Below are positions 7,834 to 42,400 of a DNA stretch of 64,000 nucleotides, piece by piece. The position numbers and the translations under genes were made by a program. Each line of letters opens with the position of its first letter. Position 1 is the stretch's first letter. The DNA is from Strigamia acuminata (lineage: Eukaryota): positions 17,112,001 through 17,176,000 of the forward strand of contig OX442314.1 of assembly GCA_949358305.1 (NCBI GenBank), given 5' to 3'. The notes below the pieces were generated by a model. The model did no database searches. It was not told the DNA's origin and saw nothing but the letters and a program-made list of their open reading frames with translations.

Positions 7834-10117
7834 TTATTGGTCCAAATGAGAAAATTTCTTCGCTAATTTCGTCCGTTTATTTTTATTGTAATGCTTTTTC
7901 CACGGTTTGTGCGTTCCATCTTCACGAGACTGGGGATTTTGGACAAGTTTATTGCTCTTTATGTGGCCAGACAAATTGATTTGACTAAAAAATGAATCCA
8001 AGTCATCTGGCGATGAACTACGAATCTGGAAAAAGTTAACATATATTTAATTTAAAAAAAAAAAAAAAACTTACGGTAATTCCGTTTATTTTTATACCTC
8101 GTGTAATTCTGGTGGTGGCGGAAAAAGGTGATAATCGTCTTGATTTATGTCGGGTGGACCGTGGCAGTACAATAATTTACCCTAAGAAAAAACACCGACA
8201 TTCGAAAGATGATAAATAAAATTTCAAATTTCAAAATTTCATTTTTCTTACATTAATATAATCCTTAAGCACATAACGAGAAGACCGGGCTTCATCAGGT
8301 AATCCTCTCTGTGTTGTATACCCACGCGTTACTGTTCAAATCAAATAGATTTTTAATGGAAAAATACATCGATACGATAACTTACGTGCATAAGTTTGAA
8401 GTAATTTGTGACAATCTTTCAGATACATCGCTTCTTGAGTTTGTTGTAATCGAAATCCATAAATGTTTTCCAAAACATGGATTGGAATTCGTGATACCAT
8501 GTATTTAACATTAAGAAAGATAGTAAAATTAAAAAAATCTTACAATTAAAAAAATTATATAGAAAGGATATCAAATTAATTGAAGGAACATAATCGGTCA
8601 ATTGATCAATCGATAAAGTGCCCCCAAGAACGAGATCTGATTTGCTGTTCACTATGGAAGGCATCACCAAACCAGGACAATCACAAACGCGTACTTCTGG
8701 TTCAATAAAAAATGTCTGTTGGCCAAACAAATTTAAAGAGTCAATAAATAATCTCTAAACAATTTTATTTTTTACCTGGAAATGTTTGGTTTTACCCGGA
8801 GTGACAGATGTGCTAACTCTTTTCGTTCCAAGTAAAGCATTCACTACGGAACTCTTCCCAACATTCGGGTATCCAATCTTAAGCAGATTCCACCATTAGT
8901 ATTAAAAACCTGCAGGATATTTTAAAGCACTCACAAAGCCCAACGTTAAAGTTGAATTTTCTGATTTATAGCAATCTCTTAAATGATCAATTAATTGTTT
9001 TCGGCCTAACATTAAGCCGTCACCGTCCTCTTGACCTTCCTTCAATAAAAAATCAAAATCAGTATCAAAATAATAACAAAAGATTTCAATCTTACAAGCT
9101 GAAGAAGTGCGGAAAAAAAAGCACATTTGATTCCTTGCTGCTCGAAATAATCGGCCCACGTTTGTCTTTGCGTTTCGGTCAGCAGATCTGATTTGTTGAC
9201 TAAAACTGTGCTTCGTTTCGATGGATCCACTTCTTGCAAATATTTCTCCAAATCAGTTGAAAAGTATAGCAACGGATTACGAGCATCTACGATTTGTATC
9301 ACAACATCACTAAAGAAAAAGATAAATCGTTTCATCATCAAGTTCAAAAAGAAATTAATTTAATCGTACCTTTCGTCAACTACGTGCCATAACTGACGCC
9401 ATAACTCAAAATTTTTCTCGAACGGAGTTAACACTATATCCGCGTGTTCCTGCAAACTGTAAAAATTATTTCAGTCGAAAACTATTAACGAACTTTTAAA
9501 GCCCCAAACTGTTCCTCTTACTCAGCCAAATCACGTCGCCAATCCATAAAAGAAGAAAATTCCAATTGGTGATATTCTACAGCACTCATATCTTCACTCC
9601 ACTTGGGCCTACACAGAAATAACATTATAAAAACGTTTGAAAAAGATTTAAAATGATGTCATACTTTCGGGGAATGGGCAGAGATTCAGTTTTAGATGTT
9701 AATGCATTTTCTCCGGTGTATCCATAAGCTGGTAGAACAAAAATAACATCATCTCGTTCTAAAATAAAATAAAATTTATTAATTAAAGTTACGCGCAATT
9801 CTTTAAGTCATAATCCACGGATGGGTTATTAACCTTCAAACTCTTTGCTGGCAGCTTGAGCAGTACACAGGAATTCATCTAGTTGTTTATTTTCTGTTAT
9901 AGAATTAGGTGTTGGTAATGCTTCCCCAGTTGGTGCTATCTGTGTATTAATTCATAATTTAAAGTTAAGAAACTTACAAGGACACTTTATTCCGATTACT
10001 ATTGTAACTTACAATAACCAACTCCTTATTTTTCAATCGTCTCTGTTTTTCTCTCGTTTTCTTATCTCTCACTAAACTCTTTCCCAAATTTATTCCGTTT
10101 TTCGATACACTAGCCAT
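7834..10117 (-). CDS. LSG1: large subunit GTPase 1 homolog (60S export GTPase)
   Basis: Multi-exon; LTPFEKNFELWRQLW, SDVVIQIVDARNPL, NKSDLL, GYPNVGKSS, TPGKTKHFQT, CDCPGLVMPS, KPWKKHYNKNKR; circularly permuted GTPase motif order. Confidence 0.95.
8501..8571 (-). other. U12-type (minor spliceosome) AT-AC intron in LSG1
   Basis: 5' end ATATCCTTT, branch-like TTTCTTAAT about 10 nt before the terminal AC; removal joins DYVPSINL|MVSRIPIHVLENIYG in frame. Confidence 0.92.
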
Positions 10118-18200: not shown

Positions 18201-20636
18201 GCTAAACGTGAGTTAATTTTTAAAAAGATTACGGTGGTTTGAAAAAAAATTAGAAAGGTGTGTATAATTGCTGGGTTTAGAAGCTGTGATAAAAAATGAA
18301 GATTGGACCGGTTAATAAATATAAGCCCATTTCCTTGCACGCAAAAAAAGAGTAAATAAAAATGGCGACAACGAGTGAGTGTGAGCGGAGAAAAAATAGA
18401 CGCAGTTTACTGTTTAAACAGTGGCTTTTAGGAGAGTTGTTAAACGTGTTGTGGTTTTTTACAATGTGAGAAAAAAATTGAAATGCTAATAAATCTTGTT
18501 TAAGTAAACCGAAGAATTAAATGAAATAAAAATCTGTTTTTTTCTTCTTAATTTGTTGTTTTGTTTTTCTGTTTCTTATATAGATAAAGAGAAGAATTAT
18601 AAAATTTGGTGAATGTTTTTTGCTTTACATTTAATTCTATAGAGAAAAACTAAAAAATTACGCAAAATTGAATGCGATGAACTATAATTATCGTTAAAAA
18701 AATATTTATTGGACTAAATTTGCATGTATTTCAATGGAGCAATAAGATATGTTTTTCCGTTTGATAAATTCGTTACCGACAATCACCGAAATCTAAAAAT
18801 GAACTGAAATTTTTTTAAACTAAATATTCAAACTATAGAATATAACATGGAAAAAGTACAAGCACATTCAATACACCAATCTAAATGGAAGATTTCACAT
18901 GTTAAATTTTCAATTTCAATTTACACCGGCTTAAAATCTAAAAACAAGTTTAAATGAATTTAAAAACGCGTCTAGTATTCCATAAATCAAAGACTAATTC
19001 AACAATAAACCCTTGTTTTGTCCATCATTGAGCTATCAAAGAATTTTTCATTTTTTCTGAAACACTCATCCGTGCAATTAAAAAAAAATACGACCAAAAA
19101 AACTACACGCACACACCACACACGAAAGAAAAAAGAATGGACAAAAACTGGTTGTAACAAACAACCGAATTAGCGTGAAAAAAAAACACAAATAAGAGTG
19201 AAAAAATGAACATGAGGTTATATTTTATATTATCAACGGCAGCCGGAAAATAACGGTATACCCACAACCCATAAGAAGCTGAAATTCGGCTGAAATTACA
19301 TCCGAGCGAACATCAAGTTACGAAACCATAAACTCGACTAATTCCTAAGATTGTATTTAATTAAAAACCCGTAGTAGTATATTTAAAGTAACCGGAACAA
19401 TTGACCAAACTAGAGTGTTATTCATTGGCCAATATTAACAACATTCTGGTTCTCCCCAGCCGCAATGTGCAGTGTCCAGTCTCTCTCTCGCTCTCTCTCT
19501 CCATCTCCCTCTCCCACTAGCCATCCAGATCGTGTCCACTCACCATTCATTCACCAATGAGAAGGAAGGGTTTAATTTCTTACCTGTGTGTAGTCGTGTG
19601 TGCTGCTGGACATGAGATAGTTGCTTGAATCTTCTTTCACAGTAGGAGCACTTGTAGGGCTTTTCACCCGTGTGGATTCGAATGTGCTGAACCAACTGAT
19701 GGTTACTGGAGAACGACTTGAGACATTGCTGGCACTGATGAGGCTTCAACTCGCCGCGATGAACCTCACGAGCATGGTGCTGCATGGCCGACTTGTGCAA
19801 AAAGATCTGCACAAACAAACACACACACAAAACTGACCACACCCGACGAAAACCACACCAACAACAATAACAAGATATAACCCATAATAACAAAAACAAA
19901 CTACCACGACTATGAGTGTGAGCAACCAAAAGGAGTTTAAAAAAAAGGATAAAAAATAAACCCCGAACCACAAAGTAATAACCCTTTGGTCTCGTCCATC
20001 ACGACTCTAGCCGCCATCTTGAAGAAGACCGGTTTCACGACAACCCTTTAAGCTCCAACCGATTTATTTCGCACCTGCAACGAACTCAACGTAGGCCCAG
20101 AAGCAAAAGGCGAAGGACGGGGACCGCCACATGCGATCGGGGAAGAGTCGACCGAATCGGCCTCAGATCGCGACACGGCGCGCTGGGATGGACCCACCGC
20201 GTTCCCGTGAAGCGAATACGAGCCGCCGCCGCCGCCGCCTCCGCCCCCGCTCCCGTTGCCCGTGCCTGATCCATCGTTGTTTTGTTGTTGGCCATTGTTC
20301 ACCTGAGGAACTCCGCTGTTTGTACCCTGAAACGACAAAAAAAGCAAAATTGATTCGAAAAAAGTTGGCGATAAAAAGAATGTAGCAGAAAGACGAACAA
20401 AAAAGTATAAAGAGAAAAAACAATGTTGGAAAAAAAAGATACAGCAAGAGGCCATGAGCGAAACACGCAAGTGAGACGCGGCGCAGACGCCGGAAAGAGA
20501 TCGACCGCGGGTTGCGTAAAAAAAATAAAAAAGGACAGCAAAGCCGGGAGTCTTTCGGCCGACGTTGTGTAAAGACTTAAAAGGCATCGATGGACACGGG
20601 ACTCACCTGATGAGAAGAGGAACCCAGAGGAGCCAT
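12259..20636 (-). CDS. dati: datilografo-type (LIN-29/ZNF384/ZNF362 family) C2H2 zinc-finger transcription factor: 7 complete fingers plus the C-terminal half of finger 1
   Basis: Exons 20636-20607 (tentative start), 20326-20075, 19806-19584, 16238-16054, 15949-15817, (13039-13031), 12837-12670, 12593-12259, all phase-compatible; [88 protein letters not shown]. Confidence 0.85.
13031..13039 (-). CDS. candidate 9-nt microexon of the dati-type unit
   Basis: cattgcatttttatattaactgtag|CGAAGCAAG|gtaagt; phase 1-1 as required by the flanking exons, changing S to TKQG before KRRMANHPC. Confidence 0.6.
14290..14340 (+). repeat. (AAT)n microsatellite
   Basis: About 17 AAT units with one GAT interruption. 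Confidence 0.9.
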
Positions 20637-21186
20637 GGAGAGCGCAATCCTTTGCGCTCAGCGTCGGCAGCTCATGAAGAACCGCTCGGTATTAAGCATT
20701 TACATTTTTTAGATGAGGAGAAAATCAATAATTTTTCCAAAGCGGCGTTCAAGCGTGCGTCCCTCCCCCAACCAGAGAGAGAGAGAGATGTGCGCGCGCG
20801 CAAAAAAGGGGCGCCTCGAGCCGAGCCACATGAATACTTGTCCTGCTGGGACAAGATGGCGGAGGGTGGGGATGGGGACAGCAAGAAAAAGGTGCCACAA
20901 ACGACAACGGGGTGTTTTTATGATAAACAAAACAAGCCATTAGTGCGACAAAAATAAGCATACACACCCTCCCTTACCGACGTGCAATGGACGCGCCGAA
21001 AACGCAGCTGAAAGGGGTTGATCATTTTGACACCGAGGGAGAGAGATACCACGTTCAACCCTTTGGTCCCAACAATCAGGGTCCGGGAACGCAGCGTCAA
21101 AAAATCAAAATGGTTGAAACGTCAATAATGAATGAGGAAAAACGGGCTCCACAAAGGGCGACCACATTCAAAAAGAACCCCAAAAA

Positions 21187-21217
<31 letters not shown>

Positions 21218-24200
21218 AAATGAAAGAATGAATGAAAGTTAAAAAAATAAAAAAAATCTGAAAAAGTGGTTTCGCGTTTCATCTTACCATTGGAGAGGAC
21301 TCGAGTGGTATTTGTAGGATTTGACTTGACCACATTTTGACTTTTGTGAGGTGAACCAACGCCAGCGCTTTCTTAAGGACGCAAATCCCCCGCACCTCAC
21401 CTCAAAAGTCTCACACACCACCCCCACAATGCTACCGTTCTCACCTGAAACTATGTGGGAACTCGATGGTCGAGCTCGTTATCAGATCCAAGAGGTAAAC
21501 AAAGACACAAACACACAATCACATACACAACCAACGACACTTTACAGCAAAAAATATTGCTTCGGAAAAAAAACGACACACCCCCGCGCCATGAGGTGAA
21601 GCACCTGAGAAATAATCAAGCTTAGGCGCCACTTTTTCTTACCGCCTGGCTTATCCCAGGTGAGTCAGCCCCGATTGCCCTTAGCGTCTCTTTGCTAAGA
21701 TTTATAGGCTGTAATTTCAACAAAGTATTGTAATTAAGCATAGCGAACCACAAGAAAAACTCATCAACGTGGACTTCTTTTGACAAGAACCTGTCCCTCG
21801 TCATCAGTGAACGCTAGTGTACGCTACCATAGTGTGTTTTAATGAAGAAAATGTGATTCCGTGTGCATAAAAAATACAGGGCTTCGTTTTCAATTAAAAA
21901 ATAAGAGAGAAAAAGAGAAAAAGAGAGCGAGGAGGAGAGAAAAGAAATTGTGAATCGGTCCCCGTTACCCTTCATTTCGCTCGTTTTCGTGTAGCGTTTT
22001 TGCCCACCCCCTTTGGGTGCCATTAATTGGCTCGGTTAATAAGAGATCGCCCACCCAGCCGACAATTACGAGGCCAAGGTACGTATCTGGTAAAGAGGGA
22101 GGTAAAAGGAGGAGAGGAGAGGAAAGGGGGTTGTGAGGGAGGTGCTAATTTGTGCTTTGTTTCCGCACTAATTCAATTTATACAACTCGAAGACACTCCG
22201 CCGCCATTAAAGTGAAGCTAACAGAATTTCGAGTTGGATTGACGAGCCGTGCCAAAAAACACCCACTGGACACACAAATTAATAAATGATAAAGAAGGAA
22301 AAGGGGAAAAAAAAGAAGGAGAAAGAGAAAGGATAGAGAGAAACAAAGATGGTGGAAAGCTTTGACGTCATCATGTTGGTCAACATCTCCCCTCCCTCTC
22401 CGTTCAGCCTCTAAACATCAATAGGACCAAGGGGCGGAGGATGTAAACAAGAGACACGAACGCAGCTGGTCACAACAGCACAACGGACTCAACGGGTTAA
22501 GACGTTAAGACAAAGGAAGGAGCGTGAAAAATATGGCGACCGATGTCGGATTTAGGAGCTGCGGGATCAAAGGTGAGAAAAAAGTGACCGGTTTCTGTGG
22601 GAGAAGATGAAAACAGAGCGAGGGGAACGAGGAGGGGGAAATTCTCATTAACGATCCGAGATGACTTCATCTTAGGAAATTAATAAATTAATTAAAGATG
22701 AACGTCTTGGGGCTTACGACTTATTAAAAACTAGAAGCGAACGCGAAAGGCCAAAAATCTAAAAACGCATATGGGTGGGTAGAGAAAAAATTGCCGAAAA
22801 AAGGGGAACGCTTCGAAAAAATAATTAAAAAAACAGAAAAACAAACCATGCAAAAGAAACAGTCACAGAAAAAAGTTTTTTCTTTTTTTTTCCCGTAACC
22901 TTTAATTAACATGTAGTGAAATAATTAAGAAGACGGAATATTCGAAAACTGAGTGGCGGGTTTCTGAAGTGAGTGTTGAACCCCACGAAAAGCCACCCCT
23001 AAGACACCCACCTCCACTCCAAACAGAAAAGAAATTTCCCCTCCCCCGTTCCACTCACTGTTGCGGGGAAAGAAAAGGGAGTCGTGGAATCCCACTTGAC
23101 TCAACCTGGCTCCTCACCTGGCCATTCCAGGCACGTGCTACCACTCTACAAAAGGTAACCTGCGACTATACCCGATCGCGCCACTATTTCATATACCTAA
23201 TTCTGCATTCGGGCCGGATTTAATTCGATTTATTCATGGTATTTCTAATTCTTGCCTTATTCTTTATTTATTTATTTTTCCTGCAGAGAATTAAATGCGG
23301 AGAAATTGAGAGACAAAGATGGTTTGAAGATAAGCGAAGACAATACGGCAATGGGAGAAAGATGAACGTGTTTCTATCCGTTAGAAACCACTCGAGTTGG
23401 ACCGGATTTGAAAGCTGTTGTTGGTGCTTTGGTTTTGGCTCCGTGTTGACTGTTTGCTGTGAGACAAAAGAACCCAACCCCCAACCAACCGATTGAAAGG
23501 ACGTGCAGGACAAAAATGGCCGCCCCAACTCAAGTGACAACTTGAAGAGGATTTGGATAAAACAAAAAAAGCGTTTTGGATTTATAAGATGATTTCGTAA
23601 CTGAGGTTTTATAAAAATCTGCGAATTAGGGTTCGAACTTTCGGTCCGTTTTACCGACATATAAACTAGAGATAAAATTTCAAACGAAAAAGAAAAAAAA
23701 AAATGGAGAAAACTTGTGCAGTGTAATTAGAGCTACCTCGAGGAAATTTTAATCACTTTTACCTGATCAAAATGGAAATTTAACTGCACTCTCACTCAAA
23801 TTAGTAGAGTTGCATTTTTTTCCCCTCATTTTTCTAATATCTTTGAATATTCAATGCAGAGCGACGCCTCATTGGTCGATGCTGGTCACACGAACCACTC
23901 AGCATGGAGCAATGGCCGCCGCGTGAATGATTGCAAATGAGTCAAATGTCAATTAGGGTTCATAGACTGGCCGCGAACGCCCTCGGACCGTTCGCAGACG
24001 CAACGGGTTAAAAATGAGAACTGAAAAGCCAAAACGATGAAGTGGAAAACGAGATGGCGATGAAGATGAAGATGAAGATGCTCCTACCTGATGTCGATAT
24101 CACGATGAGTACAGAAGAGGAGGAAGAAGATGCGCATCGTCAACAAGATGCCACAGGAACGCAAAAGTGGTGTGCACCCGCGGGAACGCTGTACAAACGC

Positions 24201-27200
24201 CGATTCACTAACAACATTGGCCGGCAGGGCACAAGGGAGTTCTTTTTCCTTCGTTTTTTTTAAAACTTTTTTTTGGTTTCAAGGAGAGAGCGAGGTGACG
24301 CAGGCCTCACGTGAAAAATCCCTTGAGTTATGAGGAGAGGCGCCATTGTTCCACTCACTGTTACTTCACCTGAATCACCCGAGCTGAAAGGGTTAGACAG
24401 GCACCTGAGGAGGGAAGGGGATTCGAAGAGGGGATCCACCGTACTGCCTCATTTGAATGTGCAAGAACCTCATTTGCATAACTTGCCCGCAGCTTTCTTC
24501 TCTCGGAACGAAAGGGTTACGCACTGATGGCACACGAGCCTCGCTCGAGGACCCGCTTCAAAGAAACTGATTTCGAGGGAGCCAACTTCCTGGCCAACAC
24601 CCACGCCCCCACGCGACCCCAAAACCCACCTAACAGATGCGAGAAAACAAACAAACAAACAATTCTCAAACCCGCAGAAACATAAACCCATCGAGCAAAC
24701 CCTGTGCGAGATATGCAGAAACGCAACGCCACTTCAAAGGTTAACTACAGTTCGCCCAATGACCCGACTCACCTGGTCGGAGGCCACATCGATCCGCCAA
24801 ACCGCGCTATAAATGATCCACCAGCCGAAAGAAGGAAAGAAAGAAAGCGAAACGAACATTAACGACAAAAAACGAGTAATACAACTGAGTAATAATAAAG
24901 ATCGTAAATAAAAAATAAACATCATGTTTTTCCGAAAAATAAAAACAATAATAAAAAGGTGTAGAAGAACGCGGGTGGTTGACAAATGTCAACTTGATGG
25001 CTCCATCAACAAAGACAAGGCACAATTTCAGGGGCTTGAAAACAGAACATTGGACTCGTACTCCACAATTACAAGGCGCACACCTGAGTTTTTCATTTAT
25101 CCCCTAAGTGGGTCTTTTTCCCTTCGCAAGACACCCGCTTCGTTATTAAAACAATAAAAAAATATTCACTTTTTTATATCAAAATGGGGATGATGAAAAA
25201 GATGAGGACAGCAGCTGGCTCACCTGGACGAATTTTAAGGAGTAGGGGCTAATTAATACATACAAACACACACACATTTCCAACGACTTTTCCCCCACTG
25301 TCTTAACGACTCAAATACTAATTCAGTAACAAAAAAATTCTGTAATGATTAAATTATTTTTTTAAAAACAAAGAAAATTAAAAATATAAAAAATATAATG
25401 ACCAAGGGGCATCTAGAAAATAATTAAAGTCAGAAATGTGCTTCATTTCCAAAGCCAAGAGAATAAAAACGCCCGAGAACGGCCGGCATGAAAAAAAATC
25501 CGGCGTTGGTGGTTTGTGTGAAGATCTAGATTAAGGGAATGATAAGAAATGTTGGGAGGAGGAATGTAAAGAGGGGGACATCTTCCTCCGCCCCTCAATC
25601 TTACGGCTGATTAGCCACACACAAGGAGGAAAGTGAGCAGCGGGTCCCTTCCCCATACGGGGTAAGCAATAAAAAAAAGAATAAAAAAGAAAAAAAGAGG
25701 GACGCGAAGGGAAGGTGGGAGAGAGAGAAAGGGAAAGGGAAGTTGTACGCAACGCACTTGGCACTTGGACATGTTGAAGTATGGGAAGGAAAAAAATTTC
25801 ACGGCCATATTTTAAACGGGAAAATAAACATAAGCCTTAATAAACGGAGCGCAGTTACGCGGAGCATCATCTAGACGCTGAATAGTCGCCATATTGAACG
25901 CGCGATGAAGTTAGAGCGGGTGGGGAGATGAGGGAGGGGTCAACGAAGGCCAGTGGTCAAATGCGATACCCACCACGTGAGCTTGAGGGGGTGGTCCTTG
26001 CGTGTTGAGTGGTCTCATGATGCGTCGTTGGTTGTCGAGCGGCGGTGCGTGGCTCATCGATGCGTCTCGGCGCGTCTCGGCGATGCGAAAAAATCACGAG
26101 CGCAAAGGGGTGCCGCCGACTCGACTCGACGACCAACACTTTTTCGTTGGGCGCGGCCATAAAAATCCCCCTCCCCCCATACCCATCTTTTCTCCCGCAC
26201 CCTACACCTCCTTGTTTATCGTCAGCAGCGAGAGGCGACGTCACAGCTCAGTGTGGCAATCAATGGCAAGAGCCAAGGTGCCTCCCTCACCGAGCGTCTC
26301 CTCCCTCATCCTACACACCCCACTTCTCATCCTCGCGCTCGTTTTCATCTTGCCTGCAATAAAATGGCGCCCTCTTTTTTATTTCTCTTTGCATTTCTCG
26401 TGTCCATTTTCTCCGTTTCTGCACAAATGGACGCGCGAGGACTTTGACTCAAGTTTCCGATATTTCGCATCCCTTAGACACTGCCGTTTATCACCCTTTA
26501 AACCCGATGTTCCGATGACGCATTCGTAACGCAGTAATGGCAAAGGATGGGTGGGAGTCGTGAGTCACGCATCGATCGGAGCTCGGCCCGAAAGGGGAGC
26601 ACTGACGTCAGAGCCGCCGTCGCCACTGAATAAAGAATATGCAAACACACGCGGAGAAGGCTGGGAAATCATCAATAATCCTTTGCTCTTCGCTTTTTTC
26701 GCTGCACCCGACACCTTCTCCGTGGTCGGTCATTCACATAATCCGAGAAAAAGATGGACACGTGTTTTATTTTACTTTTTATTTTTTTTTTTAGAATTAA
26801 AAAAAATAAAAATAAAAATTAAGGAACATTGACCTCGAGAAATTTAAATATACACAAACGACAAATCAAACGCAATTTCATTTGTCTGAATATTCTCGTG
26901 TTTCACTCAAAATTGACTCATGGCGTCTCATCAGAACAACGGATCATCTGAAGATGCGACGCGTGCCTCCTTATCAAATATTTTAATCAATTTTTTTTCT
27001 TTCTTCAAAAAATTAAATTTGATTTTTCCGTTTGCAAAAAAAAAGGAAAATGGAAATGGAAAAGGTTTGTTTGCTCACAAATTGAGAATAAAATTATATG
27101 ATTGAATGAGATGATTTCTTTGATTTGTTTGTATCACGCATATTCAAATGGCATTCAGCAAGTGCCAGGTGACAAGTTCGTGCTTGGTTGGCCAGGTGCG

Positions 27201-28693
27201 TGGTCCGTTGGTGCAAAGTATTCATTTCCTACGGAAATGAGGTAATAAGCGCTTACTGCATCTGTTGTCGTTGTATTTTTCTGGTGGGACGCGTCTCTTG
27301 ATTTGCCGATCCCCTCCACTGGACGTGCCTCCCTAGTCGGCTCATCTTTAATTTTGCTCAGACAAATCAGGCAAACAATAAATTCATTACAAATACAAAT
27401 GTAGAAAATTGTATATAAAAAAGTTAATTAATTAAAACTAAAAAAAAAAATATTATATTTAAATTTGTAAAACAAAAAAGTTGTGTCATCTGTTGTCGGC
27501 GTCGATCGCCCAGTGGGTCTCGTGACCCTGTCTTTGTATCTTCCCCGACTGCTTGGGGTTGGCGGAATAGAAGGGTTATATTCAAATCCAGCAGCAGGAC
27601 TCAAAGGGTTAGTGATGGCCATCGGAAGGAAGCGGTCCATTCAGAGTGGTTTAACTGGTCCTACAGGATCCGAGAGTTTGCCATCCACCATGCCACCCTT
27701 CCTCCTTCTCTCCCTCCCCCTCCTTCCCCCCATATATTTTTCCTTGCTCGCATTCACCTCATAAATATGACGTTGCTTGTTGTTGTTGTTTATTTTTTAA
27801 GACGCATCAGCCCAGATGGTGAGGGAAGGGGTAAAGAGCGAGATGCGATCAACGATGCAGACCACGCACACTGTTTGCCTCGCGGATAAAATTTCATCGC
27901 GGCCAGGAAACGCGCGCGAGGGACGATGCCATCATCATCATCACCATCATTGAACGAAACCGTGATCGATGTACGGGGATTCACCACCCACGCTCGCGCC
28001 GCCAATGAATAAGACACGGCCGACTAAGGCTGGGTGTTGCCATGACAATCAACGACCAATGGAAAGAATTCTCTCCAATCGCAAAACGCACGAACCACAT
28101 AAATTAACGAACGCTGCACAACGTCGACCCCGATGCAATTAAAGAAAAAGAGCTACACCTGCTACTCGGGGATCACCCCTTACTCCCCAACCCGCATCAT
28201 GAATTAAATACCCTGGAGTTGTAATAAAAGAGAATGGATTTTTTAAATAGCTGCTTACCGGATTATTTTTCAGGTGAGATGATGGGACGTTTTCAAGATG
28301 AGCTGGTCATTGATTCAGTACTGTGTGCTTCGGGCCGGTGTTATTACATCGTGTCGTGATCGTGATCGTGAATGAAGACGAAGACGGTGGAGTTGAGAAG
28401 AAGAAATTCTGACCCGTTCCCTCAATTTTGATTGCTCACACACACAAATGGTCGATGGTGGCAGTAATTGAAAAGTTTACGTTGTGTGAAATTTGGCTTA
28501 GAATCTTTTTTTCTCTCTTTTTATACTTAATTTTTTAATGTTTTTTGGAGAAGTTGAATTTTAAATTTGCTTTAGTGTTAAATTGATTTGATAAAATTTA
28601 GCGTGTCGAAATGAGAAAACAATTGATAAATAAACAAGCGGAAATGAACCATCATCGACCAAATATACGAAGAAATAAGCAGGAAATAAGGCA

Positions 28694-28745
28694 GCTTACC
28701 TGTAAAAAAAAAAAAAAAAAAAAAAAAAGAAAAGAAAAAAAAGGT
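28694..28745 (-). other. candidate recursive splice site (ratchet point)
   Basis: Minus strand reads T25-ACAG|GTAAGC, junction 28700/28699. Confidence 0.6.
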
Positions 28746-31700
28746 GAGACATTAAAATATAAATGTAAAATTTTCGAAGAAGTAAATGTTTCTTTAAGAG
28801 ATAAGGAGGAATAAAGGTGAAAAAAAGAGACAGGAATCGACAAAAACGGAGGAACAAATAAAAGTCCAAAATAATATTTTTATGCATTTAATAAATAATT
28901 TTATTAGTAATTAATCGGAGAAAAAAATAGATATTTTATTTTTAGTAAAGGTTTTGTTTTATAGTTTTAATTATATATTTTATTAGAAAACGTTAATAAC
29001 TTATACACGTTTGACTGAATTAAACGAGAAGATTTCAAACAAGGATAAATGTTAATTCATCAACTACCTTTACATACTAATGTTTACAAAGCTTTGATTA
29101 TATTATCTATAAATGTCGTAATATACGCAACTGCTTTTATAAAACTGCAAAAAAAAGAAGAAAATAAATAAAGAAATAAATAATTCAACGAGCAGTTTGC
29201 AATTAAATTTTTTTCTCGATGTTATTTTAAGTTTAACAATTTTATGACGGCATATTTTTAATGTCACTTCCATTCTGTAATTTGTACTTTTTTTTCTTCT
29301 TTCCAAGTTAATGTAACAGATGTTGTCGGATAAATATTTATTAAATAACCCCTAACTGTATCATTATTTTTTTTCGGTTTTAATTTGGTTTAGGCTTAGG
29401 TCCGAACAAAACAACATACCATTTTAAACTCGGATAGGATCCTATCTTTTGTGAAATTAATCACAATTATCCAATCCGTATGTGTGAAAATAGTATTTTC
29501 AGTTCGAAATGAGAATTATCCGTAGGTTTCCCTCACAATATCTGCCATTTCGTCTTCTTACAAAATACAGCTAGTTATTTAAATTAATGAAATAATGTTC
29601 CCTCCGAGACTAAACCTACTCTAAATTGTAACATTTTAAAAAGCCCATAATTCTTAAAATTTAAAAATCCCTAAGAGCAATTCAGGGAAGTATACAAATG
29701 AGTATTACCGGGTTCCCACTTAAAACGCATTTTTACCTATATTCTACTAGAATTTTATCCTCAAAAACGAGTCATTTAACCTGCTAGAATTCTCTGAATC
29801 TAGTTGCGTTAATTGCGTATTCAATCCACTGTACTGCAATTCTTATAGATACGCTTCGGAGATAGGTTTAGAATAGCTAAACGTGAAAATTCTGATGTTT
29901 TACGCCAAATGTTACAATTATTGTTTCTTTATTCACTTCAAATTTATAAAATATAAATTCACGTAACTAAGAAAACATGTATCCAAAACCAGAGATGAAA
30001 TAGTTTCAATGTAAGATGAATTATAAAAGCTGGTTTTACATTCGTTGATTGGAATCTTTCTCTAAAATAGCACAAAACATCGAAATTCTTCCACGTAATT
30101 ACAAATTTCACTTTTATTAAACCGTGACTTTCGGAAACAGTAGATCGCAATCTAATTAATGGATTTTCAGCAATCATTTTAGATGTTTTATTTCTAAATT
30201 TAGTTTAAATAACAAGCTGAATTAATTTTTTCAGCAGTTTTTTGTCGGTCAAAATGAAAAAGCTACTCTGTATAGCACGGCGTTATCCTTGAAGAAACGC
30301 TTATTTTAGTCGGCGTTTCATTTCACTTTATACAAACCTAAAATTTAACAGTATTAGAAAATATACTAAATTTTAATTCTACAAACAAACTTACCGGTAT
30401 TAAATTGCTATTACCCCGCTAGAATTTAATGCGAAATGCAATATCCAAATACAGAATACGACGTGCACCGTATGGATTTAAATATAATTTTGGATATGCA
30501 TAATTCGTTGAAAAAACTAAGAACAAAACAAAACTTTTATGGCAGTTTTTGGAAGAGGAGTTGCTCATGCAAATCCGGCCATTGTTTTGTGTATATACTA
30601 TAACCGTAATAGCCTTTATTAGTTAGTTTCACGCAAGGAACAGTTAATAGCTTTTTTCGCTAAGAAATAATCCTTAAAAATGTTTAATAATATTTTCATT
30701 CAATTTTTTGAAAAACGACCTTTTTAGCGCAAAAAGTACCGATAAAAAGCCACTGCACGAAAACACCTAATTATCTTCAAAAACTCATCGACTGTGTATT
30801 AACTGATATCAAGTTTAATAAAAATTCAAGTGTACAATTTCGGTATAATTTACGAGCATAATTGTACCACGTTTTCCAATTTTAAATATTTTATTTTCTC
30901 TCAATCTAAAGACTAAGCCTCAATTTTGCCCAGACCACAGCGAGCTGGAGGTCGATTTTTCATATTAATCTGAACCTCTAATAAAGCCGTAAATTCATCT
31001 TGGAAAAATTGTGAGCTCGTTTTTTTTTATTTATTTTAAAATGTTACATTAACTTAAAGGTGTGAACAAACAGATTTAATCGGATTGAATGCTTCAATCC
31101 AATTGCATTATCACACCCGTATAACTTTCGGACATAAATACGACTAGTCAGCTATTAAATGCATCCATTGATTAATTTTTAAATAGGCCCACGAATTTAA
31201 ATAAATCTATTTTTGGATATATATATATATATATATTTACTTATAATAAAATGATATTTATGCTCATCCTATTTTTTTTAAAAATCAAACGCATTCTAGG
31301 TACCGTAAACGATTATCTTTTGCAGTCGTAATTAAATTATTTTCTTTAGAAAATCTCCCAAATAAAGTTTTTAAAAAAATGTGCAGAAATGGTCAAATTA
31401 AGCCGATTTTCTGCCACATTTCGGCATAAATTCATTGCATAAATATTTCTCAGAAAGCTCTTCCATTCATTTAATCTAATTCTTCGGTGACTGCCCCTTA
31501 ATTTTCAAGATAAATATACAAAAAAGCTTATAAAATCCCGCTAATCGAATTGCGAAAATGGAAGAAAAATCATTTTGCAAAAAACTCCACCCTCGCAAAC
31601 ACAATAAAGCCGCCATTCGGGGGCTCGATTCACACTTTCAGCCATTTTCGATGCATAAAACGGAACTATTAAAAATGAAAAGAAAACACGACTCAAATCA

Positions 31701-32819
31701 GATTCAACTCAATCAAATTCAAGTACATACCGTAGCTGCTAATGAAAAACTAACGAAATGAGCAGCCGGCTGTTCATGAAGAGAAAACTGGTATGTGTTT
31801 AAAAACCAAAAAAAAAAAAAAAGAAAAAAAAAAAAAAAGAAAAAAAAATTCTCAAGCCGAAAAAAACGGTGTCGAGTTGCGATCACATATCGATAATGAC
31901 CGTAAGGAGGCAAAGAAGAAGACAAGTAGAATTATGGAAGACGACGGGAAATGGGGACGAAGGTGAATGCAAATAACGAGTAATTATCCCGGTAATGGAT
32001 GGTTGTACTTAACCGGAGCCAGCAACGGATGCCGGAACGCAGAAACGTGGGAAAACAACGGCCAACAGTGGCCAAAAGGGAATGATGATATACAGATGAC
32101 CCCAACCATTTTCCTTTCCAATTTTTTCCCTCCCCTTTTCCTTAGTTAAGTTCACTTTCTTCATCGCTTTCTCTCCCCTTTTTTCCTGTAACCTGTTTGT
32201 CCAGAAATCGTCTAACCCTTTGGTGCCAGTTGACAAAGCAAGCTGATGGTGGTGAATACAGCCGCAACCCTTCCCTTCCATCTCTGCAACCCTTTCATCC
32301 CGAGGTTCGAGGAAAGGGTTGAGCTCGATGTGTTAAAATCAGCAGAATAAATAAGCAGAATGTGAGGAGAACGCCGGCGTCGTGGGAACGGTTCCTGCTC
32401 CGACTCGGCCTATGCAGCCTTAACCCTTTCAATACAAAAGGGGATCGAGCTAAAAGAGGGTCCACCTGGAATGCCAAAAAAACTGGTCAGAGTGGACGCG
32501 GGCCAATGGATCCCCCTCGTCGCGCATCAGCAATTCGGCTCAGTTTAGTGGACACTATGCAAATCAACGCCGCACCCTGTTGGCAACACCTGCCCTTTCC
32601 TCCATCCCCCACTTACGGCCCAAGAGACGTTTTTCTTTGTTTGTTTGTTTGTTTGTTTGTTGTGCTTTAAAACGCGCGTCTCTCTCTCGAGATATCTGCG
32701 TTATTCCATCCATCAAGGCGACACATTTTTCGTCATCAAAAGTAATCAACTTTGATGTATTTCTAACTAGGTCCAAGTTCGATTCCCCTCGACAGTGGAG
32801 GAGGAGCTGCGTCCCTCAC

Positions 32820-32965
32820 GGGGGCCAATATGGGCGCCCGTGCCACGAGCCCTCGTCACGACGCCACTTCCCTATTGGAGGGCTGCGCGTTCGCCCGTCC
32901 AATTGGGGGACGTCATATTAATGAGCCACGAGGGGGACGCGGGCGTAAACCAACGCCCAATCAGC
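32820..32965. promoter_or_regulatory. CCAAT-box cluster in a GC-rich island, possible promoter/enhancer between the two zinc-finger units
   Basis: CCAAT/ATTGG at about 32825, 32874, 32899-32906 and 32957 within CpG-rich sequence. Confidence 0.35.
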
Positions 32966-35900
32966 GAGAAAAAATCCCCCGTCGAATAAGACGCGCAGAG
33001 GACATCTAGAATGTCCCCCACACCGAATATACGATATCGAAAATTGGTGGGGCGAAGGGGGGAGGGAGTAAAGGAAACAAAAAAAAATCCAATCTTACTT
33101 TCTACGGCTTTTAATAAATAACATTTTATTCTCGCCATCAATGAACCCTTTATTCACAGTTGGTGTCAACGACCAAAATGGACGGTCACGCACCCCGACT
33201 CCATCTTTGAATCTGTGCTCGCAGCATCCCGATCATCCATTTCCGACTCGTGTTATAAAAAATTATACGTGAGAAAAAAATTGTTTTTTTTTTAATATTT
33301 CCGCTTTCTTCCCCTTCAGGTGCAAATTATCGTCATACCGGAGGATCTTAACACCTTTTTTTCTAATTTAAAAAGGAAATAAATTTTAATATTAAATTAA
33401 GCCTCTTAACAACTATACTTCGACCATTAACTTAAACACTTTGGAAGTCTTAAAAAAATCTAAAACTGATTGCACATTTTTTTTTTCTAAAAATATTTAT
33501 ATCGGAGTTATTTACTGGTGAATCTTTGCATCGTACAAATACCCGTAAAAATCGTTATGGAATTGTGAAGAAACGAAATGTTAGCAACGTTAATTTCGAG
33601 TTAAATATGAGCTGTATTAATGTTTTAATATGCAAAAAAGTTTCGCGGTGGTTTATAATTAATACACAGAAGAGTTAGTGGTACCTATAAAAATAATGAT
33701 AATAATAAAAAAAGACGAATGGCTTAAATGAACTTTATTCGAAGCAAATATACTGAGATAAAACTTGTACAATATGTGATTACTTGATTCGACTGACTAC
33801 TCAAAAATTACCTCAACCAGGTGTCTACAAAAGGATGACTACGCGTAACAAGAAACACGGGTGAGGTGCTGTCATGCGAATCACCTGAACGTACGCGTCT
33901 CCTCCTTAAAACGCCCGCGTCCCGACGTCTCAAAATTTTAAAAAAACGAAAACAAAAATTGCAAAGAAAAGGGCCAACCCGCCAAAAAAAAATTACGTTA
34001 AAAAGAATCAAAACAAACAGGGAAAAAATGATCAAAATGACACTTTTTTTTACAAGGTGCAAAAAAAATATATATCATATACAATATGTAAAAAAAAAAA
34101 AAATTATTATAAAATTAATAATAATAATAATCATAATAATAATTATAATAATATCATGGTCCAATAAAATATAAAAAATGGTTTTATTTTTAAGTCAATG
34201 TGGCCTCTAAGTACAATTTAAAGAGCTCGTGGCTCATTCTGTTGGTCTTAGACCTCGCTGCAATGATACACTTAACAACAATTTCACATAAACAAACCTA
34301 TTTTTTTTTCATTAAAATAAAAGAAGGAGACGCGTGTAAACCCAATCAAATTGACAAGGAATATTGAGCACGTGTATTTATTGCAGCTGCGAAAAACACT
34401 CGCGTGACGCGCATGACAGCAACACCCAAGCAACAAAAAAATTCGCCAAAGGGAGCAAATAAAAAATCAACACAAATCATTACGTATTCCTCATCAGAAA
34501 ACAATATTTTTTTTTTAAATAAACAAAAGTTCACAGCACGTTAAGGTGGAGCTGCGTCGTATATGAAAAAGTCATTGTCATTACTATGTATACTATATAC
34601 AGGTGTGTCCAATGCGCGCCACGGGTCGTGGCTCAACGTGCGAAGAGGCAAAAAATATTTGCAGGTGAAAACAAAAATTACAATTCAAACAAAAAAATTA
34701 AAGTTTACAAGGAAAGAAAAAAAGTTGCTACTTTTAATTTTTTTTTTCTTTGAAAATTTTATTTAAAGGTATAAAAAAGAAGGGAAAGAAATATGGAAAA
34801 AACGCCGCTCTCCTTAAAACGAACCCAAGACGCAGATTTTTATTTTTATTTTTTTTTTCGAAAAAAAAAGTTGAAAGACGCGCGTCTCTTAATGAATCAC
34901 TGACATCGAATGCCACGGTAATCAACTCTTTCATATTTTAGACAGCGTCTCACACTGTTTCTATCAAAAAATTAAAAATAAAATAACGGGAAAAGATAAA
35001 CAAAAATAGAAAAAAAAAGAAGAAAAAAAAAAGAAACAACCTTCAACATTACAACCCGCAACCAAAAAAAACAGCAACCAACGCCAACACCTGACGATAA
35101 ACGCGTCTTAAAAATTGGGATAATTTATTTCTTCACAAGAATTGTTTAAACTTATTTTTACTTTTTCAGATTTTCAAATCAAATTATGAAAAAAAAAACA
35201 AAAAAAAAAATTAAATTCCAAATAAAAGACCCTCTCGGTCATTAAATTTACAACCAATAATATAATAATTATTATAATAATAATAATAAAAATTAATTAT
35301 CTCTTTAACTAGTCATCGCATGACCATAATATAACATGCCCCTCTGAGGGTCTGAAAACAGCGTTTTATACCAAGACTAACAACAAACAGTTTAACTGAC
35401 AGCAAAAAAGACAAAAAAAAAATTAAAAAACAAGAATTAAAAAGAAAATAAAAATAAAAAATACATTCGAGGCCAATGCGCATATCACAGAACGAGATCC
35501 ACGGAACGCAATGAGACGCCACACAGTGTGATATCCGCATGTGGGCGGCCAAGGAAAGAGAGAAAAATATATAACAGGATTCATTATTTCTTCTAAAATA
35601 ATAAGGGATAAATCGAGTGCTCGAACATGTACACAACTAATACTCACCCACTCACACATCAAACATACAACAGACATGCGAGTGTGTGTGAAAGGAGCCT
35701 GACATATACACGTACAAAGTGTATAAAACGACCCGTTTCCACTCATGACTTTGGCTTCGAAGGGCGACAAATAATTAAAATCGAAATTAAAAATAAAAAA
35801 TCATTATCAACTAGAAAGAAAAAAGAAATATGGCGTCCGAATAAAACTGGGACGAGTTGAGCAAAAGGTTTTTTTTTTTTTAATTTTTTTTTTTAGTATT

Positions 35901-36088
35901 TTTTTAGTTTATGCTTTTTTCTTTATATGTAATGAACGTGACGCGGACGCAGCCCATAGAGTCCTACAATTTTTTTTCTTTCTTTTTCCCAAATATTTTT
36001 TTTTATATATACTTTTTTTTTTTAGAAAATGTTTTTCTAGTTGAGCACACGACTCAGCTTATTGCACGTAAAAAAAAAAAAAAAGATT

Positions 36089-36122
<34 letters not shown>

Positions 36123-36471
36123 AAAAAACCATTATAAAAAAAAACAACAACAAAATAAAAAGCAAATAATGAAGGAAAAAAAAACAAAAAAAGAAGAAAA
36201 TTAATTAGAGAACCACGATGAGGACGCGGGCGGTTTCGATTTGTGCGTCCATCCATTCATCCGTCCGTCCAACGTCCGTTGCGCGTCTCGCTCGCTGACT
36301 CCGCCCCGGAGGCACACCTCATGGCCGCCGATCGAGTTCGAGGTTAACTTTAACTTTAACTTGGTTTAAAAACTGATTTTTGTTATTATTATTCTTATTA
36401 GGTATTATTTGTGATTGAATTTGTGTTGTTTGTTAAATTAGAGTTGATTAAACTGAAATTCACACCGGCTG

Positions 36472-39400
36472 CTATTGGGTTTTCTCCTTGAGGCCGAGCG
36501 AGTGGTCCGACGCGCTCATCGTGGGCATGGTTGCATAGTTTCTAATTTGGTGCAAAGAAATGAGCTGATTTGGAAAAGAACTACCCGCGGGTTTCACGTC
36601 CATCGAAGACACCTGGCCGGGCGCCTTGGGGAAAGTAACAGGTTCGTAGGGGAAGTAGGACCGAGACGAACCGGGCATGGACAACTGTGACGTCGAAGTG
36701 ATAGGCAACATAGCCTGGATCGGGGTAAAGGCGGACGACGAGGTCTTACCGGCAGACGAGCCGATCGGACCGTCGTAAGGAACCTGCGATCCGGGCAAAT
36801 GGCGCAGATCAGCGTGATCGGAAGCGGCACCGCCCATGGGCTGCCGGTGGTCGAGCGACTCGCGCACTGACGACAGGTGGAGACGCGAGTGCTCTCCCAG
36901 CGTGGACTGCAGACACGAGTCGTTGATGGAGGAGTCGTGTTGCGAGTGCTGAGCGGCGGCTCGCAGATGCGACACGGCATCGGCCACAACGTCCTGTGCC
37001 GTGGGTCCGGGCCCACTTTTCTGCCATGCATACGTGTCGTTGGGCGTCCGTACCGATGCTGCCATCATGACGGCTGATCCGACGCCGGCCGCACCTCGTT
37101 TCTCAGCTCTCTCGGCATGTTTTTGCAAGTGCTTGTTCAGATAAGTCTCTTGCGTGTAGGACTTGCCGCAAAACTGGCAGATGTGAGTCTTGAGGTGCTT
37201 CGACTCCTTGTGCTTGGGAATATGTTCGAGTAGACTGGCCTCGTCGGCGAAACACTTGTAGCAACTGTTGCACTTGTATGGTTTGTCAGTCTGATGGCAT
37301 CGAGAATGCGATTGCAAGTTGCTCAGTTGCGAGAACGCCTTGTTGCAGCCTGGATGTCGGCACTTGTACGGCTTGTCGCCCGTGTGCGTGCGGATGTGCT
37401 GCTGCAGGTGGGACAGTTGAGTGAACTTCCGCTGGCAGATCTCGCAGCGGTAAGGTTTGATGCCCAAGTGTATCCGCGTGTGCTGAGACAGGTACGAGGA
37501 GTTGGCGAAGGCCTTGGAGCATTGCGAGCACTTGTAGGGTTTTGCTTCGCGCATGTGTATCTGAGTGTGTAGCTGCAAGTCTGCCTTGGACCCAAAGATC
37601 TGCAAAGAGCACAGAAGAGACGGATGGATGAGTGAGGTCAAATCTCGCAGAGTGAGCATAGCAGAGGCACGAGGCCCCGAGTATTGCCACTCCCACCACA
37701 GAAAAAAGCCACGACAGTAATAGAACATGAGCTAACAACGACGTCAACCAAACGACCAAACGGTCGTTTCATTAACCTCGAGGATTTTATACAAATACTT
37801 TCAAATCATTATATACAATTCTCCAAATATATATAAACATTCTCATCTAATTTTTAATTTTTTAACGCAATCATTAAATAATTGCGATCCTTCTCTACTG
37901 GCTCAACAATTTTATATCCAACCCGTGATTGACCGTGATCGACTGATGTGATTGATTTTTTTTTACATTTTTTTATGCAGACACGCGGAGGATAGAGATG
38001 AAAACCAAGGCATGCAGCTGGACACGAATCAGATGACACGAGAAAAAAAGGATAGAAAAAAAGGGTGAGGAGGAGCAACAGGGAGACAAGTGCCATAATG
38101 ACATAACACCCACGACAAGGTGAAGAGGGGTGGGGTCGTGATGGTTTGAGGTGATGGGGGGGGGCATCCCCTTCCCCAGGGAGGATCGACAACTGGCATT
38201 GAGCGCGCGCTTTCATTCCCCAACACCTCCCCTCCGACACTTTAATGAGGGAGGTTTTCAACGCGAGGGGACAGCACAATGGTGATACTAGAATGTGGGG
38301 GGAGGGGGTCTTAGAAAAACCCTGGACTCGACTGCACAAGGCCAATCGTCACTCCCCCGACACACCCACGCTTCTTAACCCACCCCGAGAAGAATTTTTT
38401 TTTTAAATTCATTCAAAAAAAAAATATGTGAAAAAAAAAATGTGCAATGTGTAAATAGAGAATAAAAAGAGTGTTTAAGAAGAGATATCCTCACATCGAA
38501 GACACCTGATAGGGGCAGTATAAAAAGGGGACACGAAAAAAATACGCAGGGGCACCGAGTCGTCACTCACACACTAAACGACAGCACACACGAGCCAATT
38601 AACACATTCCCCCCTCACCCCAAAACACTTGAGGTAACTGCAGGATTCCACCTGACACACGCGAAATGCGCATCAGACATTCAAAACTTGAGATGTTTTT
38701 TCTCAACTTTTCTTAGACATTTTTTTTCTCAAATTTTACTGATAATTCCTAATTTTTATTTCTAATTTTTTTTTTTTACTTTAAAAAAAAATAAACAAAT
38801 CAACGAGTGAGGTCACCACGGTTGACTTTAGCCTTTGTAATCACATATTAACTTAATCTACTGACCTTTGAGACACTTTTTTAAAAAAAAAATTAAAAAA
38901 GAAAAATATTTCATTTAAAATAAAAAAAATAAATAAATAAATAAATAAAACTTTTTTGAAGTGGCTCGTCTCTCATCGGTCATTGGGAGCTGTCAAGTCG
39001 AGACCACACGAGAAAATTTGTAAGGTGTTTGGAAAGGGTTAATTCATAAGATAAACGAACGGGATTTATTCGGGATGTGAGGTTAAAAGGGTTAAGTGTT
39101 ATATTTTGACAAATTACGACTTTTCTAATTCCTATTTTAGGAACAGTATCTCCTACCTGTGGACACATCTTGCATTGGTATTTTCGGCCCGAACCGTTAG
39201 CGTGGGCGTGGGCGGCGGCTGCGGCAGCGGCGGCGTTCAGTGCCGGTTTGGCCACGGCATTTATGGGCTGTGGTACGACGAGCATGGACGAGCTCGTCGT
39301 AGCCGTGGACACCGGCGGGCTGTTGCTGCTGCTTCGGTTGCCGTGATTCCCGTAGATAGAGCCGTGCATACCTGGAGGTGGCGGCAGCGGTGCTTCCATG

Positions 39401-42400
39401 CTCCCCGGCCGAGGCTGATCGTCCAACGTACCTGCAAAAATATCACATCCACATCAACAAATAGCCGCGCAGAGCGCACCGGCAAATAAACACCACCAAC
39501 TGCTGCAAAAACGCAGTCGCGATACAAAAACTGCAAACACCCATGTTTTCTCCGCTCGCCCGCTCGTTCTTTTCTTTCTTTCTAATCACCGCGTCCAGTT
39601 TTAACCCACCGGCCAATGGGACTCGGTGGTGACCACGCCTCGAATCCCCACACTCAAACTACTCGAGGACCCTTTTCTTCTCCACCGTCACTTCATTTAC
39701 ATGCCACATTCAGATTATCATCGGCTCCTTTTTTTCTTGTTTGCAAAAGCCTAACAGGTTTCTAGAGTCGCCACTCGTGACTCGATCGCCACAAAACCAC
39801 ACCTGATTAAATAACAAGCGAAGCGACCCATCGCAACTATTTTAAGAAACGCTCTTTGTCTTAATTCTTTCTTATCGCCAAATTTATTCTCTTTATTTTC
39901 GCTCCGTCTATATCTATATCGTCTATCCAACAAGTTTGTTGATATTGTTTTCCTTTGCGTTTGCTTTTTTTCCTCCCGTCGATCGTAATTCATTTTTGCA
40001 ACTGTACCCGTATCAAAAATGGATCCTCTTAAACTTTTAAGAGATGTCATCAAACAGCAAGACGGCGGTAGTCATGACAACGGGGTTTCTTTCACATCAT
40101 ATTCAAATGGTATAGAACGCGCAACTCGCCTCCAAAAATGATGGTTGGACACACGGCGGCGCCGCGTCCATCATCCACTTTTGTTTGCTCATTAAACCTT
40201 AAAGAATTTAATTAGATTCCAATCCGAAAAGGCGCATTTCTCACTGCTAGAACGCTTTTCTCTCCACATTTCACATGTGGGAGGTACCCAAAAATAACTC
40301 GCGTACAGAGCGCTAAAGGGTCACCGAAAACAAAAACAAAAACAAAAAATCACTTACCGCCTGGATATTTGTTGCCATGACTCGATCCGTTTGTGCCTGC
40401 AAAAGAATTTCAAAAACAATTTTCATTTTAAAAAATAAACACATTAAAAAAAAAAATAAAATTCATTCCTCCATAAAAAAAAAAAATTAAAAAAAAAAAA
40501 TTAAAATAAAATAAAAAATTATTTTTTTTATTAATTAGAAAAAAAAAATTCAATTAAAATAAATAAATAAATAATGCACAGAACCGAGCGAGGAAGTTCC
40601 ACATATAAATAAACAAAGAGTTTAAAAAAGATTGAGCATCCATCCACAAGACCCCATCAGTAGCACCCCCCTAAATAAAGACGATGACAGTGCACAAGAC
40701 GCTATAAAAAGAACACCACAACGAACTTACCGCTAACATTTCGGAAAAACTCCCGTAACTTGAAGAGCGAACATAACTTCATCTCAATCATTTTGTCATC
40801 TTTAGCCATGGAAGAAGAAGAAGAAGAGGAAGAGGAAGAAGAAACGAGGCCCGGAGATGAGACGCCGCTTCTTTTCCTCACTTGATCCTGATGGGGAGGT
40901 CCTGAACTCCAAGAAGAACGCCACGAGATAAGAAGAGAGAGAGAGAGCAAATTCGGACGAGCGGGGGGCACCCACCGTGCAGGGGACCCCGCGGGCCAGT
41001 AGGGAGGGAGGGGGGCTCACGATGGCCCCTGCGCCTGAGCACACAGTGCACGGCGCGCGCTCCAAACACGCCACCGACCAGCGACGCCCTTTATCGATTG
41101 GCCGACGACGACGCAGCGAGCGGCGCGCGCGAAACGCCCACGCTGGCCAACCGAGCAGTGGACCCGACCGGCCAAGAGGGGGGGAGGAAGAAAACCAAAC
41201 CGAAAAAATAAATGTTGTTTTTTAAAAAAAAAAAAATGAAATGAAACGTCGGATTCGCTTGAAAATCAATAAACGAAAGGAAGGAAAAAAACAAACTCGG
41301 AGCCAAAGAGTTAAGGAATTCGGATTTGATTTTAAAAAACAAACAAATAAATAAAATAAAATAAAAAACTGTGGTAGGAGCAAATTAAGAGGGAGTTTTA
41401 CCTGAGACACAGGTGGTACGAATAAACCTCGAGCAAATGGGGCGGAGAGTGGGGGCGGCCAAAGAAAAAGACCGAACGCCGTGGCTCTCCCATGGCAGTC
41501 TCAGCGTCGGACGCGGCTCATCACACGACTGACACGTGCGTCGGCGACTCGCGCCAAAGAGCGAATGAGACCGCAAAGCAACATGGGAATCGTGGTCAAC
41601 TCGGGTGAAGTCGACCGATGGTCGCGGGGTGGACGCGCATTCACCTCCGCCCACTCAATGGACCCGCCCGTTGACCACTCCAATCCACCCCCGTCTTAAA
41701 TTAATTGACCCATTTCACGCTGCCCTTCCTTCCCCACCCACGCGCATTCTCTCGTCAGCGTCCGTCTCGACCACGCCCAGCTCAACCCGAGACAGACGCC
41801 AGCGTTCGGACTCGACACCACCAACATTTCCAAGGGGTGAGTGTGGCCGCATGCCACAGCAAGGCGGCCGCCATGGCGTGGCCGAGCTGGTCGATCAACC
41901 TGCCTACAGCAACGTCTCCTTCCATAATTACATATCACCACCCCCGCGTCCCCGACCCTGCACGATTCGGACACTGTCGCCAGGGACGACTCACCACGGC
42001 GTCTCCTCACCACGTGTCGTTCCTTATTCGGTCGACGACCGCGTGCGTCTCAGCTGAGCCTCCTTCGCTCTACGGGGGTCCGTCTTCCCATTTTACACTG
42101 CGCGCTCGATACGAGGGGCCCGTGCTTATCTCGCACCTGTGCCCACGGACGCTCGGGGACCCTCCCGAAACCGCTCCCAGGACCTCGCTGGCCCCCGCTT
42201 TCATTTCTCACTTTGCATTCTACTCACTTTTCAACTCTTGATCCTCCACCATGGCCATACTCTTAGCGTCGACACATTTTCAAAATGGAGGGAGGCCGCA
42301 TCGTCACTGGAGAGAATAACCGATCATCCTCCTCCGCCACCCCAACCTGTTCCACGCCTTTACTACCCTCTTATTTTTTTCAATATTTCCTCCCAGACCC

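Follow-up and report, generated by a model that had tools for sequence, protein, structure and literature searches.

A candidate recursive splice site in a probable long intron upstream of a dati-type zinc-finger cassette in the centipede Strigamia acuminata

A recursive splice site, or ratchet point, probably lies at 28700/28699 on the minus strand of a 64,000-nucleotide stretch of Strigamia acuminata DNA (contig OX442314.1; the whole stretch is hereafter called the window), where, judging from its letters and setting, it would split the likely 19.35-kb intron between a shared zinc-finger exon and a datilografo (dati)-type cassette into pieces of 10.5 and 8.9 kb. The minus strand is the coding strand here, and along it a CTCAC motif is followed by 40 pyrimidines and then by ACAG|GTAAGC. 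The initial annotation had described the core of this element, T25-ACAG|GTAAGC on the coding strand, as lying about 10.5 kb from the donor at 39157 and 8.9 kb from the acceptor at 19806; the letters of the minus strand confirm the motif, and recomputation gave 10,457 and 8,893 nt for the two distances. The site is found at 54% of the intron. It is also 8,900 nt from the acceptor of the rotund-type exon, and the near equality of this distance to that from the dati acceptor is treated as a coincidence.

Results

The host gene runs on the minus strand, with exons ending at 54005 and starting at 44150 and 40396, followed by the shared coding exon at 39431-39157 (Table 1). A protein of Strigamia maritima matches the rotund-type exon at 98% identity, and RNA-like contigs cover the 3' UTR of this exon down to about 33650-33720, beside an AATAAA at 33739 that precedes the candidate site by 5 kb. 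The dati-type cassette, which lies 17.8 kb beyond the rotund-type last exon and whose best named relatives include Drosophila dati/Lin29, continues into further exons at 16238, 15949, about 12835, and 12593, and all five listed changes of organism D in its first exon are synonymous. Both cassettes open in phase 0 with the second half of finger 1, and the first six letters of the two exons are identical. A Strigamia dati protein was sought in the protein search, and none was present among the best 120 of 198 hits.

Table 1. Positions of exons and candidate splicing elements in the window.
Feature	Position	Strand	Evidence
Shared coding exon; ends in CxxC half of zinc finger 1, and its donor opens the 19.35-kb intron	39157-39431	minus	97% to Strigamia maritima T1JKT8
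Rotund-type terminal exon; coding 37599-36472 plus 3' UTR	33650-37599	minus	protein matches, RNA-like contigs
First exon of dati-type cassette; second half of finger 1	19584-19806	minus	protein matches, spliced contig ends in X6 and X7
Candidate branch point CTCAC; A at 28745 is position -46	28748-28744	minus	sequence
Polypyrimidine tract, 40 nt uninterrupted; T25 at 28728-28704, TT at -5/-6	28704-28743	minus	sequence
Juxtaposed acceptor (ACAG, 28703-28700) and donor (GTAAGC, 28699-28694); candidate ratchet point	28694-28703	minus	sequence
Candidate for a cryptic RS-exon of 441 nt or, if it ends at 28414, 286 nt; the shared-exon frame reaches a stop after 15 codons	28259-28699	minus	inferred
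Second ratchet-point-like site; CTGAC at -23, TT, CCAG|GTAAGC at 51127/51126	51054-51150	minus	sequence only
Likely dati-own coding exon, fed by donor at 20607	20075-20326	minus	X7 contig breaks, third-position changes

Features expected of a ratchet point, namely, a juxtaposed AG|GT, a strong pyrimidine tract, TT at -5/-6, and a consensus donor, are all present on the sense strand at the candidate site, which is preceded by a 90-nt zone free of AG. In a search for the pattern Y12-N-YAG-GTRAG with at most one mismatch, three matches were found against 0.13 expected, none of 100 shuffles reached three, and the candidate site was the sole exact match. Because homopolymers are under-represented in such shuffles, all YAG sites in the seven intronic stretches of the host gene (35.3 kb) were also ranked by a T-rich composition score, which was trained on eight protein-supported acceptors and favors T-runs by construction. 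The candidate site ranked first among 552 sense-strand YAG sites. GTRAG follows seven of these 552 sites and GTAAG only two (ranks 1 and 14), and therefore the chance that the top-ranked site would carry a donor motif is 0.4-1.3%, a post hoc figure. On the antisense strand, used as a control, GTRAG follows 2/587 YAG sites (ranks 28 and 52, both GTGAG), and GTAAG follows none. Two further AG|GT sites rich in pyrimidines were tested and lack the TT at -5/-6 that the candidate site shares with the site at 51127. The motif statistics as a whole are post hoc, and the scanning of many windows picks out chance matches, which counts against the ratchet-point reading.

The intron at 39156-19807, running from the shared exon to the dati cassette, is likely to be real, as judged from protein models and contig ends. 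The initial annotation had taken the DNA at the site to be intronic, either within this 19-kb rn-to-dati intron or within one from a promoter near 33 kb, and the former assignment is made likely by chelicerate isoforms and by the geometry of one contig. Among 49 dati-type proteins, which were picked by motif from 356 fetched and are database annotations rather than experiments, 14 carry the shared-exon CxxC directly before the junction (13 from chelicerates and one other). The CxxC is found there in none of 29 insect and crustacean dati-type proteins, and five chelicerate models and one millipede model also lack it. Five of the 14 CxxC-bearing proteins pair with a rotund-type protein that is identical for 126-268 residues before the junction, and two of these five pairs share one locus number.

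Four contig runs, of at least 20 found, were aligned to 19550-35500, a stretch that ends short of the donor at 39157; none of the runs is on record as RNA, and their contigs carry neither strand nor level. In X6, which derives from this species (organism A), a 336-nt contig covers 19583-19809 and has loose letters on either side, and it is therefore taken to be spliced. The contig begins 24 nt before the dati acceptor. Since the first six letters are common to the rotund and dati exons, a branch in the assembly graph at the shared donor predicts 30 - 6 = 24 nt, if words of 31 letters are assumed, while other donors would predict 30 nt, and the donor at 20075 would lengthen the match to 19811 instead of the observed 19809. 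The loose letters before the acceptor match nothing in 20082-22741 or at the candidate site, where X6 gives no cover. The contig ends thus support, by way of contig geometry, a join from 39157 to 19806. Joints of 21-22 letters in X4 were judged spurious.

No joint or loose end at 28699/28700 was found among those listed for the four contig runs, with repeat rows left out. The bin with the candidate site has no X6 cover and almost no X7 cover, and X7 cover is small at 27.5-28.6 kb where that of X9 continues; both are taken as no evidence and are not read as a sawtooth profile. X6 does contain a 237-nt contig at 28281-28512 (depth 6.1) and another at 31945-32186 (depth 3.3). The alignment of organism D spans 27468-28510 and ends at 28510, and in the 532-nt bin that holds the site about 50 letters are aligned in organism D (~9%) and about 90 in organism B, so that the surroundings of the site look diverged in organism D. 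Directly downstream of the site, 27468-28510 forms a non-coding block of ~1 kb that is conserved in organism D, and the plus strand shows AG|GTGAG with TT at -5/-6 at 28273, in or near this block.

The motif might instead have arisen by chance, either as a slippage-expanded poly(T)/poly(A) tract or as the tail of an old 460-bp plus-strand retroposed insertion, abutting CAGGTAAG and unused in splicing. T25 is the longest T-run of the minus strand in the window, and a T29 run exists on the other strand. On the plus strand, the tract is an A-rich tail, an 8-bp sequence occurs at 28272 and again at 28742 as a direct repeat flanking 28280-28741, the X6 contig at 28281-28512 sits where oligo-dT capture on the A-run would give cover, and the organism D alignment fades past 28510. 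An 8-nt upstream match, however, occurs in two of the 11 A-rich tracts of the window, so the repeat is weak and near chance level. There is no second copy of the stretch within the window, Rfam gave two weak matches over 19-56 kb and none near the candidate site, and the organism D alignment runs without a break through the left edge of the supposed insertion (27468-28510). A donor motif would be expected after so few top-ranked sites, as estimated above, that its presence argues against an origin by chance, which would also leave the branch motif, the midpoint position, and the second site unexplained. We regard such an origin as unlikely.

If the site were used as a ratchet point, the rebuilt donor would have to compete with those downstream. 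The rebuilt donor, CAG|GTAAGC, matches the consensus at 8/9 positions with a U1 duplex of -11.0 kcal/mol, compared with 7/9 and -10.7 for the original donor, and the next downstream donors, at 286 nt (6/9, -6.2) and at 441 nt (CCG|GTAAGC at 28259, 7/9, -8.2), are weaker; no donor with at least 5/9 matches lies within 120 nt downstream of the site. In flies, according to PMC8605326, the donor at a recursive site outcompetes a weaker downstream donor and thereby suppresses inclusion of the RS-exon, which is ~50 nt long, a length that is typical in flies and not known as a requirement. The site might instead be a real acceptor opening an expressed poison exon of 441 or 286 nt, with part of the long transcripts directed to decay and no zero-length re-splicing. 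The matching GTAAGC donor at 28259, the conservation of 27468-28510 in organism D, and an X6 contig lying inside this exon are in line with such an exon; at depth 6.1, this contig is the deepest of the intronic ones listed for X6, the dati exon having a depth of 5.3. That contig, however, touches neither exon boundary and, like the others, gives no strand or level; the dati contig end misfits the 28259 donor, with which it would share a suffix of one letter and not three, as deduced from the sequence; and the stronger donor at the site is of the kind that, according to the same source, suppresses inclusion in flies. A poison exon therefore seems rather improbable.

The initial annotation's other proposal, an intron from a promoter near 33 kb, is left without support; the bins at 32318-32849 are empty in all four runs, and the 5' region suggested by RNA-like contigs is a dati-own one at 20.6-24.5 kb, downstream of the site. 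Contig breaks of X7 (organism D) at 20330 and 20606/20635 fit a junction from 20607 to 20326, the break at 20330 taken alone also fitting four other donors, and six of the seven listed changes of organism D in the exon at 20326-20075 fall at third codon positions, five being synonymous. Based on these breaks and third-position changes, a 5' end of its own is likely for dati as well, near 20.6-24.5 kb and thus downstream of the candidate site. One X7 contig is unspliced from 20330 to 19583 and spliced beyond, X7 cover reaches about 24.5 kb, and the bulk of dati RNA in X7 seems to originate in a 5' region on the downstream side of the site. With such a 5' end, only the long shared-exon transcript would depend on the candidate site. 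Several observations accompany this region. The intron at 20074-19807 is unspliced in X7 while the next intron is spliced. A likely dati-own start is seen at 20636-20075 (minus strand), where an ATG precedes the donor at 20607 by 30 nt and the exon at 20326-20075 follows, and this exon is in frame with 19806 and without the CxxC half, as in insect dati. Five CAG|GTGAG motifs (25224, 24773, 23118, 21445, and 20607, minus strand) occur within 5 kb and are candidates, on their letters, for donors of alternative dati 5' exons or for E-boxes. An E-box reading suits such GTGAG sites (CAGGTG) and was rejected for the site at 28700.

A dati-own transcript starting at 28.8-33 kb might also use the candidate site as a plain donor that closes a pyrimidine-rich untranslated exon. 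The look-alike at 20607, where pyrimidines precede CAG|GTGAGT, behaves as an ordinary donor in X7, and upstream lies a GC-rich stretch that contains a GTAAGT donor at 32616 as well as CCAAT-like boxes. The T25 run behind a branch motif and the 90-nt AG-free zone are nevertheless the anatomy of an acceptor, and the joints listed for the four runs include none that starts at 28700 or at 32-33 kb; we consider a plain donor very improbable. The stretch at 32300-33100, just past the rotund poly(A) site, contains a CRE-like motif in addition to the elements named above.

Discussion

In flies and vertebrates, recursive splicing has been demonstrated by experiment. If the candidate site is used in this way, transcription that continues past the rotund last exon and beyond its poly(A) site near 33.7 kb would yield transcripts in which the donor at 39157 is first joined to the AG at 28700, and the rotund last exon would leave inside the lariat. 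The join of 39157 to 28699 would rebuild CAG|GTAAGC, a donor at least as strong as the original one and stronger than the next donors. This donor would then be spliced to 19806, so that the dati half completes zinc finger 1 and no trace is left in the mRNA.

The proposed site resembles the ratchet points of Drosophila (10.1101/006163, PMC8605326, and PMC6110457) in the juxtaposition of a strong acceptor with a GTAAG donor, in TT at -5/-6, and in its near-midpoint position, with pieces of 9-10.5 kb, in a long intron whose gene encodes a developmental or neural transcription factor. PMC6110457 places fly ratchet points near the intron midpoint with pieces of about 9-15 kb, and a weaker, out-of-frame donor downstream is a further likeness to the fly sites (PMC8605326). 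TT at -5/-6 is present in 196 of 197 fly ratchet points, and fly introns with ratchet points measure 11-133 kb, a range that includes the 19-kb host intron. There are also differences. The host here is a myriapod, in which use of the site is putative; a whole alternative last exon, poly(A) site included, would lie in the first piece of the intron; the candidate RS-exon is 286-441 nt long, against about 50 nt in flies; and the branch motif at -46 is outside the range of -36 to -21 where most fly branch points lie (10.1101/006163). Large introns of other invertebrates also show an excess of ratchet-point motifs, which amounts to 4- to >10-fold in bee, beetle, and mosquito and to 8-fold in sea urchin (PMC2773006). 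The second ratchet-point-like site of the same gene, in the 9.85-kb intron at 54004-44151, has a donor 73 nt downstream, which would define an out-of-frame 73-nt RS-exon candidate.

Given its letters and setting, the candidate site is likely a further example of the known ratchet-point class. Among the papers listed in the literature search, none dealt with recursive splicing in myriapods or in last-exon choice, and no paper combined recursive splicing and centipedes. A confirmed site would extend recursive splicing to myriapods, and a first cut that removes an alternative last exon would connect it with the selection of one transcription factor over another.

The first cut at 28700, if used, removes the rotund last exon, and therefore the choice between the two ends would be irreversible there. 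The geometry makes a role of the site as commitment step plausible, and this role is putative. Fly ratchet points appear to be constitutive aids to the removal of long introns, and in neurons, as PMC10551640 describes, ELAV/Hu proteins suppress proximal poly(A) sites so that distal last exons are reached; accordingly, the site is more likely to act after the decision than to take it, and the choice between rotund and dati is more likely made earlier, by skipping of the rotund acceptor and poly(A) site. The ELAV/Hu switch is similar to the present case in that a proximal last exon (here rotund) is set against a distal one (here the dati cassette) reached by read-through; it differs in that no recursive site is tied to the choice in the accessible portion of PMC10551640, and a role for ELAV here is an analogy. 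In flies, dati is neuronal (PMC4188565). A bolder reading is that centipedes retain an ancestral single gene with rotund and datilografo as its two ends and that recursive splicing at 28700 is the switch deciding between alternative last exons: the very strong acceptor would capture the shared donor, loop out the rotund last exon, and commit the transcript to the dati-type DNA-binding domain. We find this combination doubtful. If true, a ratchet point would select protein identity in a myriapod, and the locus would be intermediate between the one-gene state of chelicerates and the two-gene state of insects and crustaceans.

The gene with a shared exon and rotund-type and dati-type ends is probably more interesting than the splice motif itself. 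It was not among the papers listed in the literature search, though it is visible in public chelicerate annotations. The two zinc-finger arrays are the same as those of Drosophila rotund, squeeze, and datilografo (ZNF384/362 family; PMC4188565, PMC2889900); in flies, rn and dati are described as separate genes, whereas here and in chelicerate annotations the two share exons and finger 1 is split. A single gene (54005-12260, minus strand) appears to have rotund and datilografo as its alternative 3' ends, the junction dividing finger 1, and the same arrangement is seen in horseshoe crab, spider, and scorpion annotations. A comparable organization, with shared 5' exons and alternative zinc-finger ends, is known from lola-type genes, which are alike in combining a shared front with alternative DNA-binding ends.

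Other features were observed in the window. The shared exon itself starts with AG|GTACGT at 39431 (minus strand) and therefore could be an expressed RS-exon. The intron between 43960 and 40397 contains, at 40822-40731 (minus strand), what may be an alternative first coding exon, and this has a GTAAGT donor. ORFs in the left flank (1900-9400) resemble what we take to be a cyclin-domain gene, a mitofusin, and an Lsg1-type GTPase, and one in the right flank (61100-62000) presumably represents a ubiquitin-specific protease, which it resembles. Two arrays of short tandem repeats occupy 650-1760, with repetitive ORFs on both strands.
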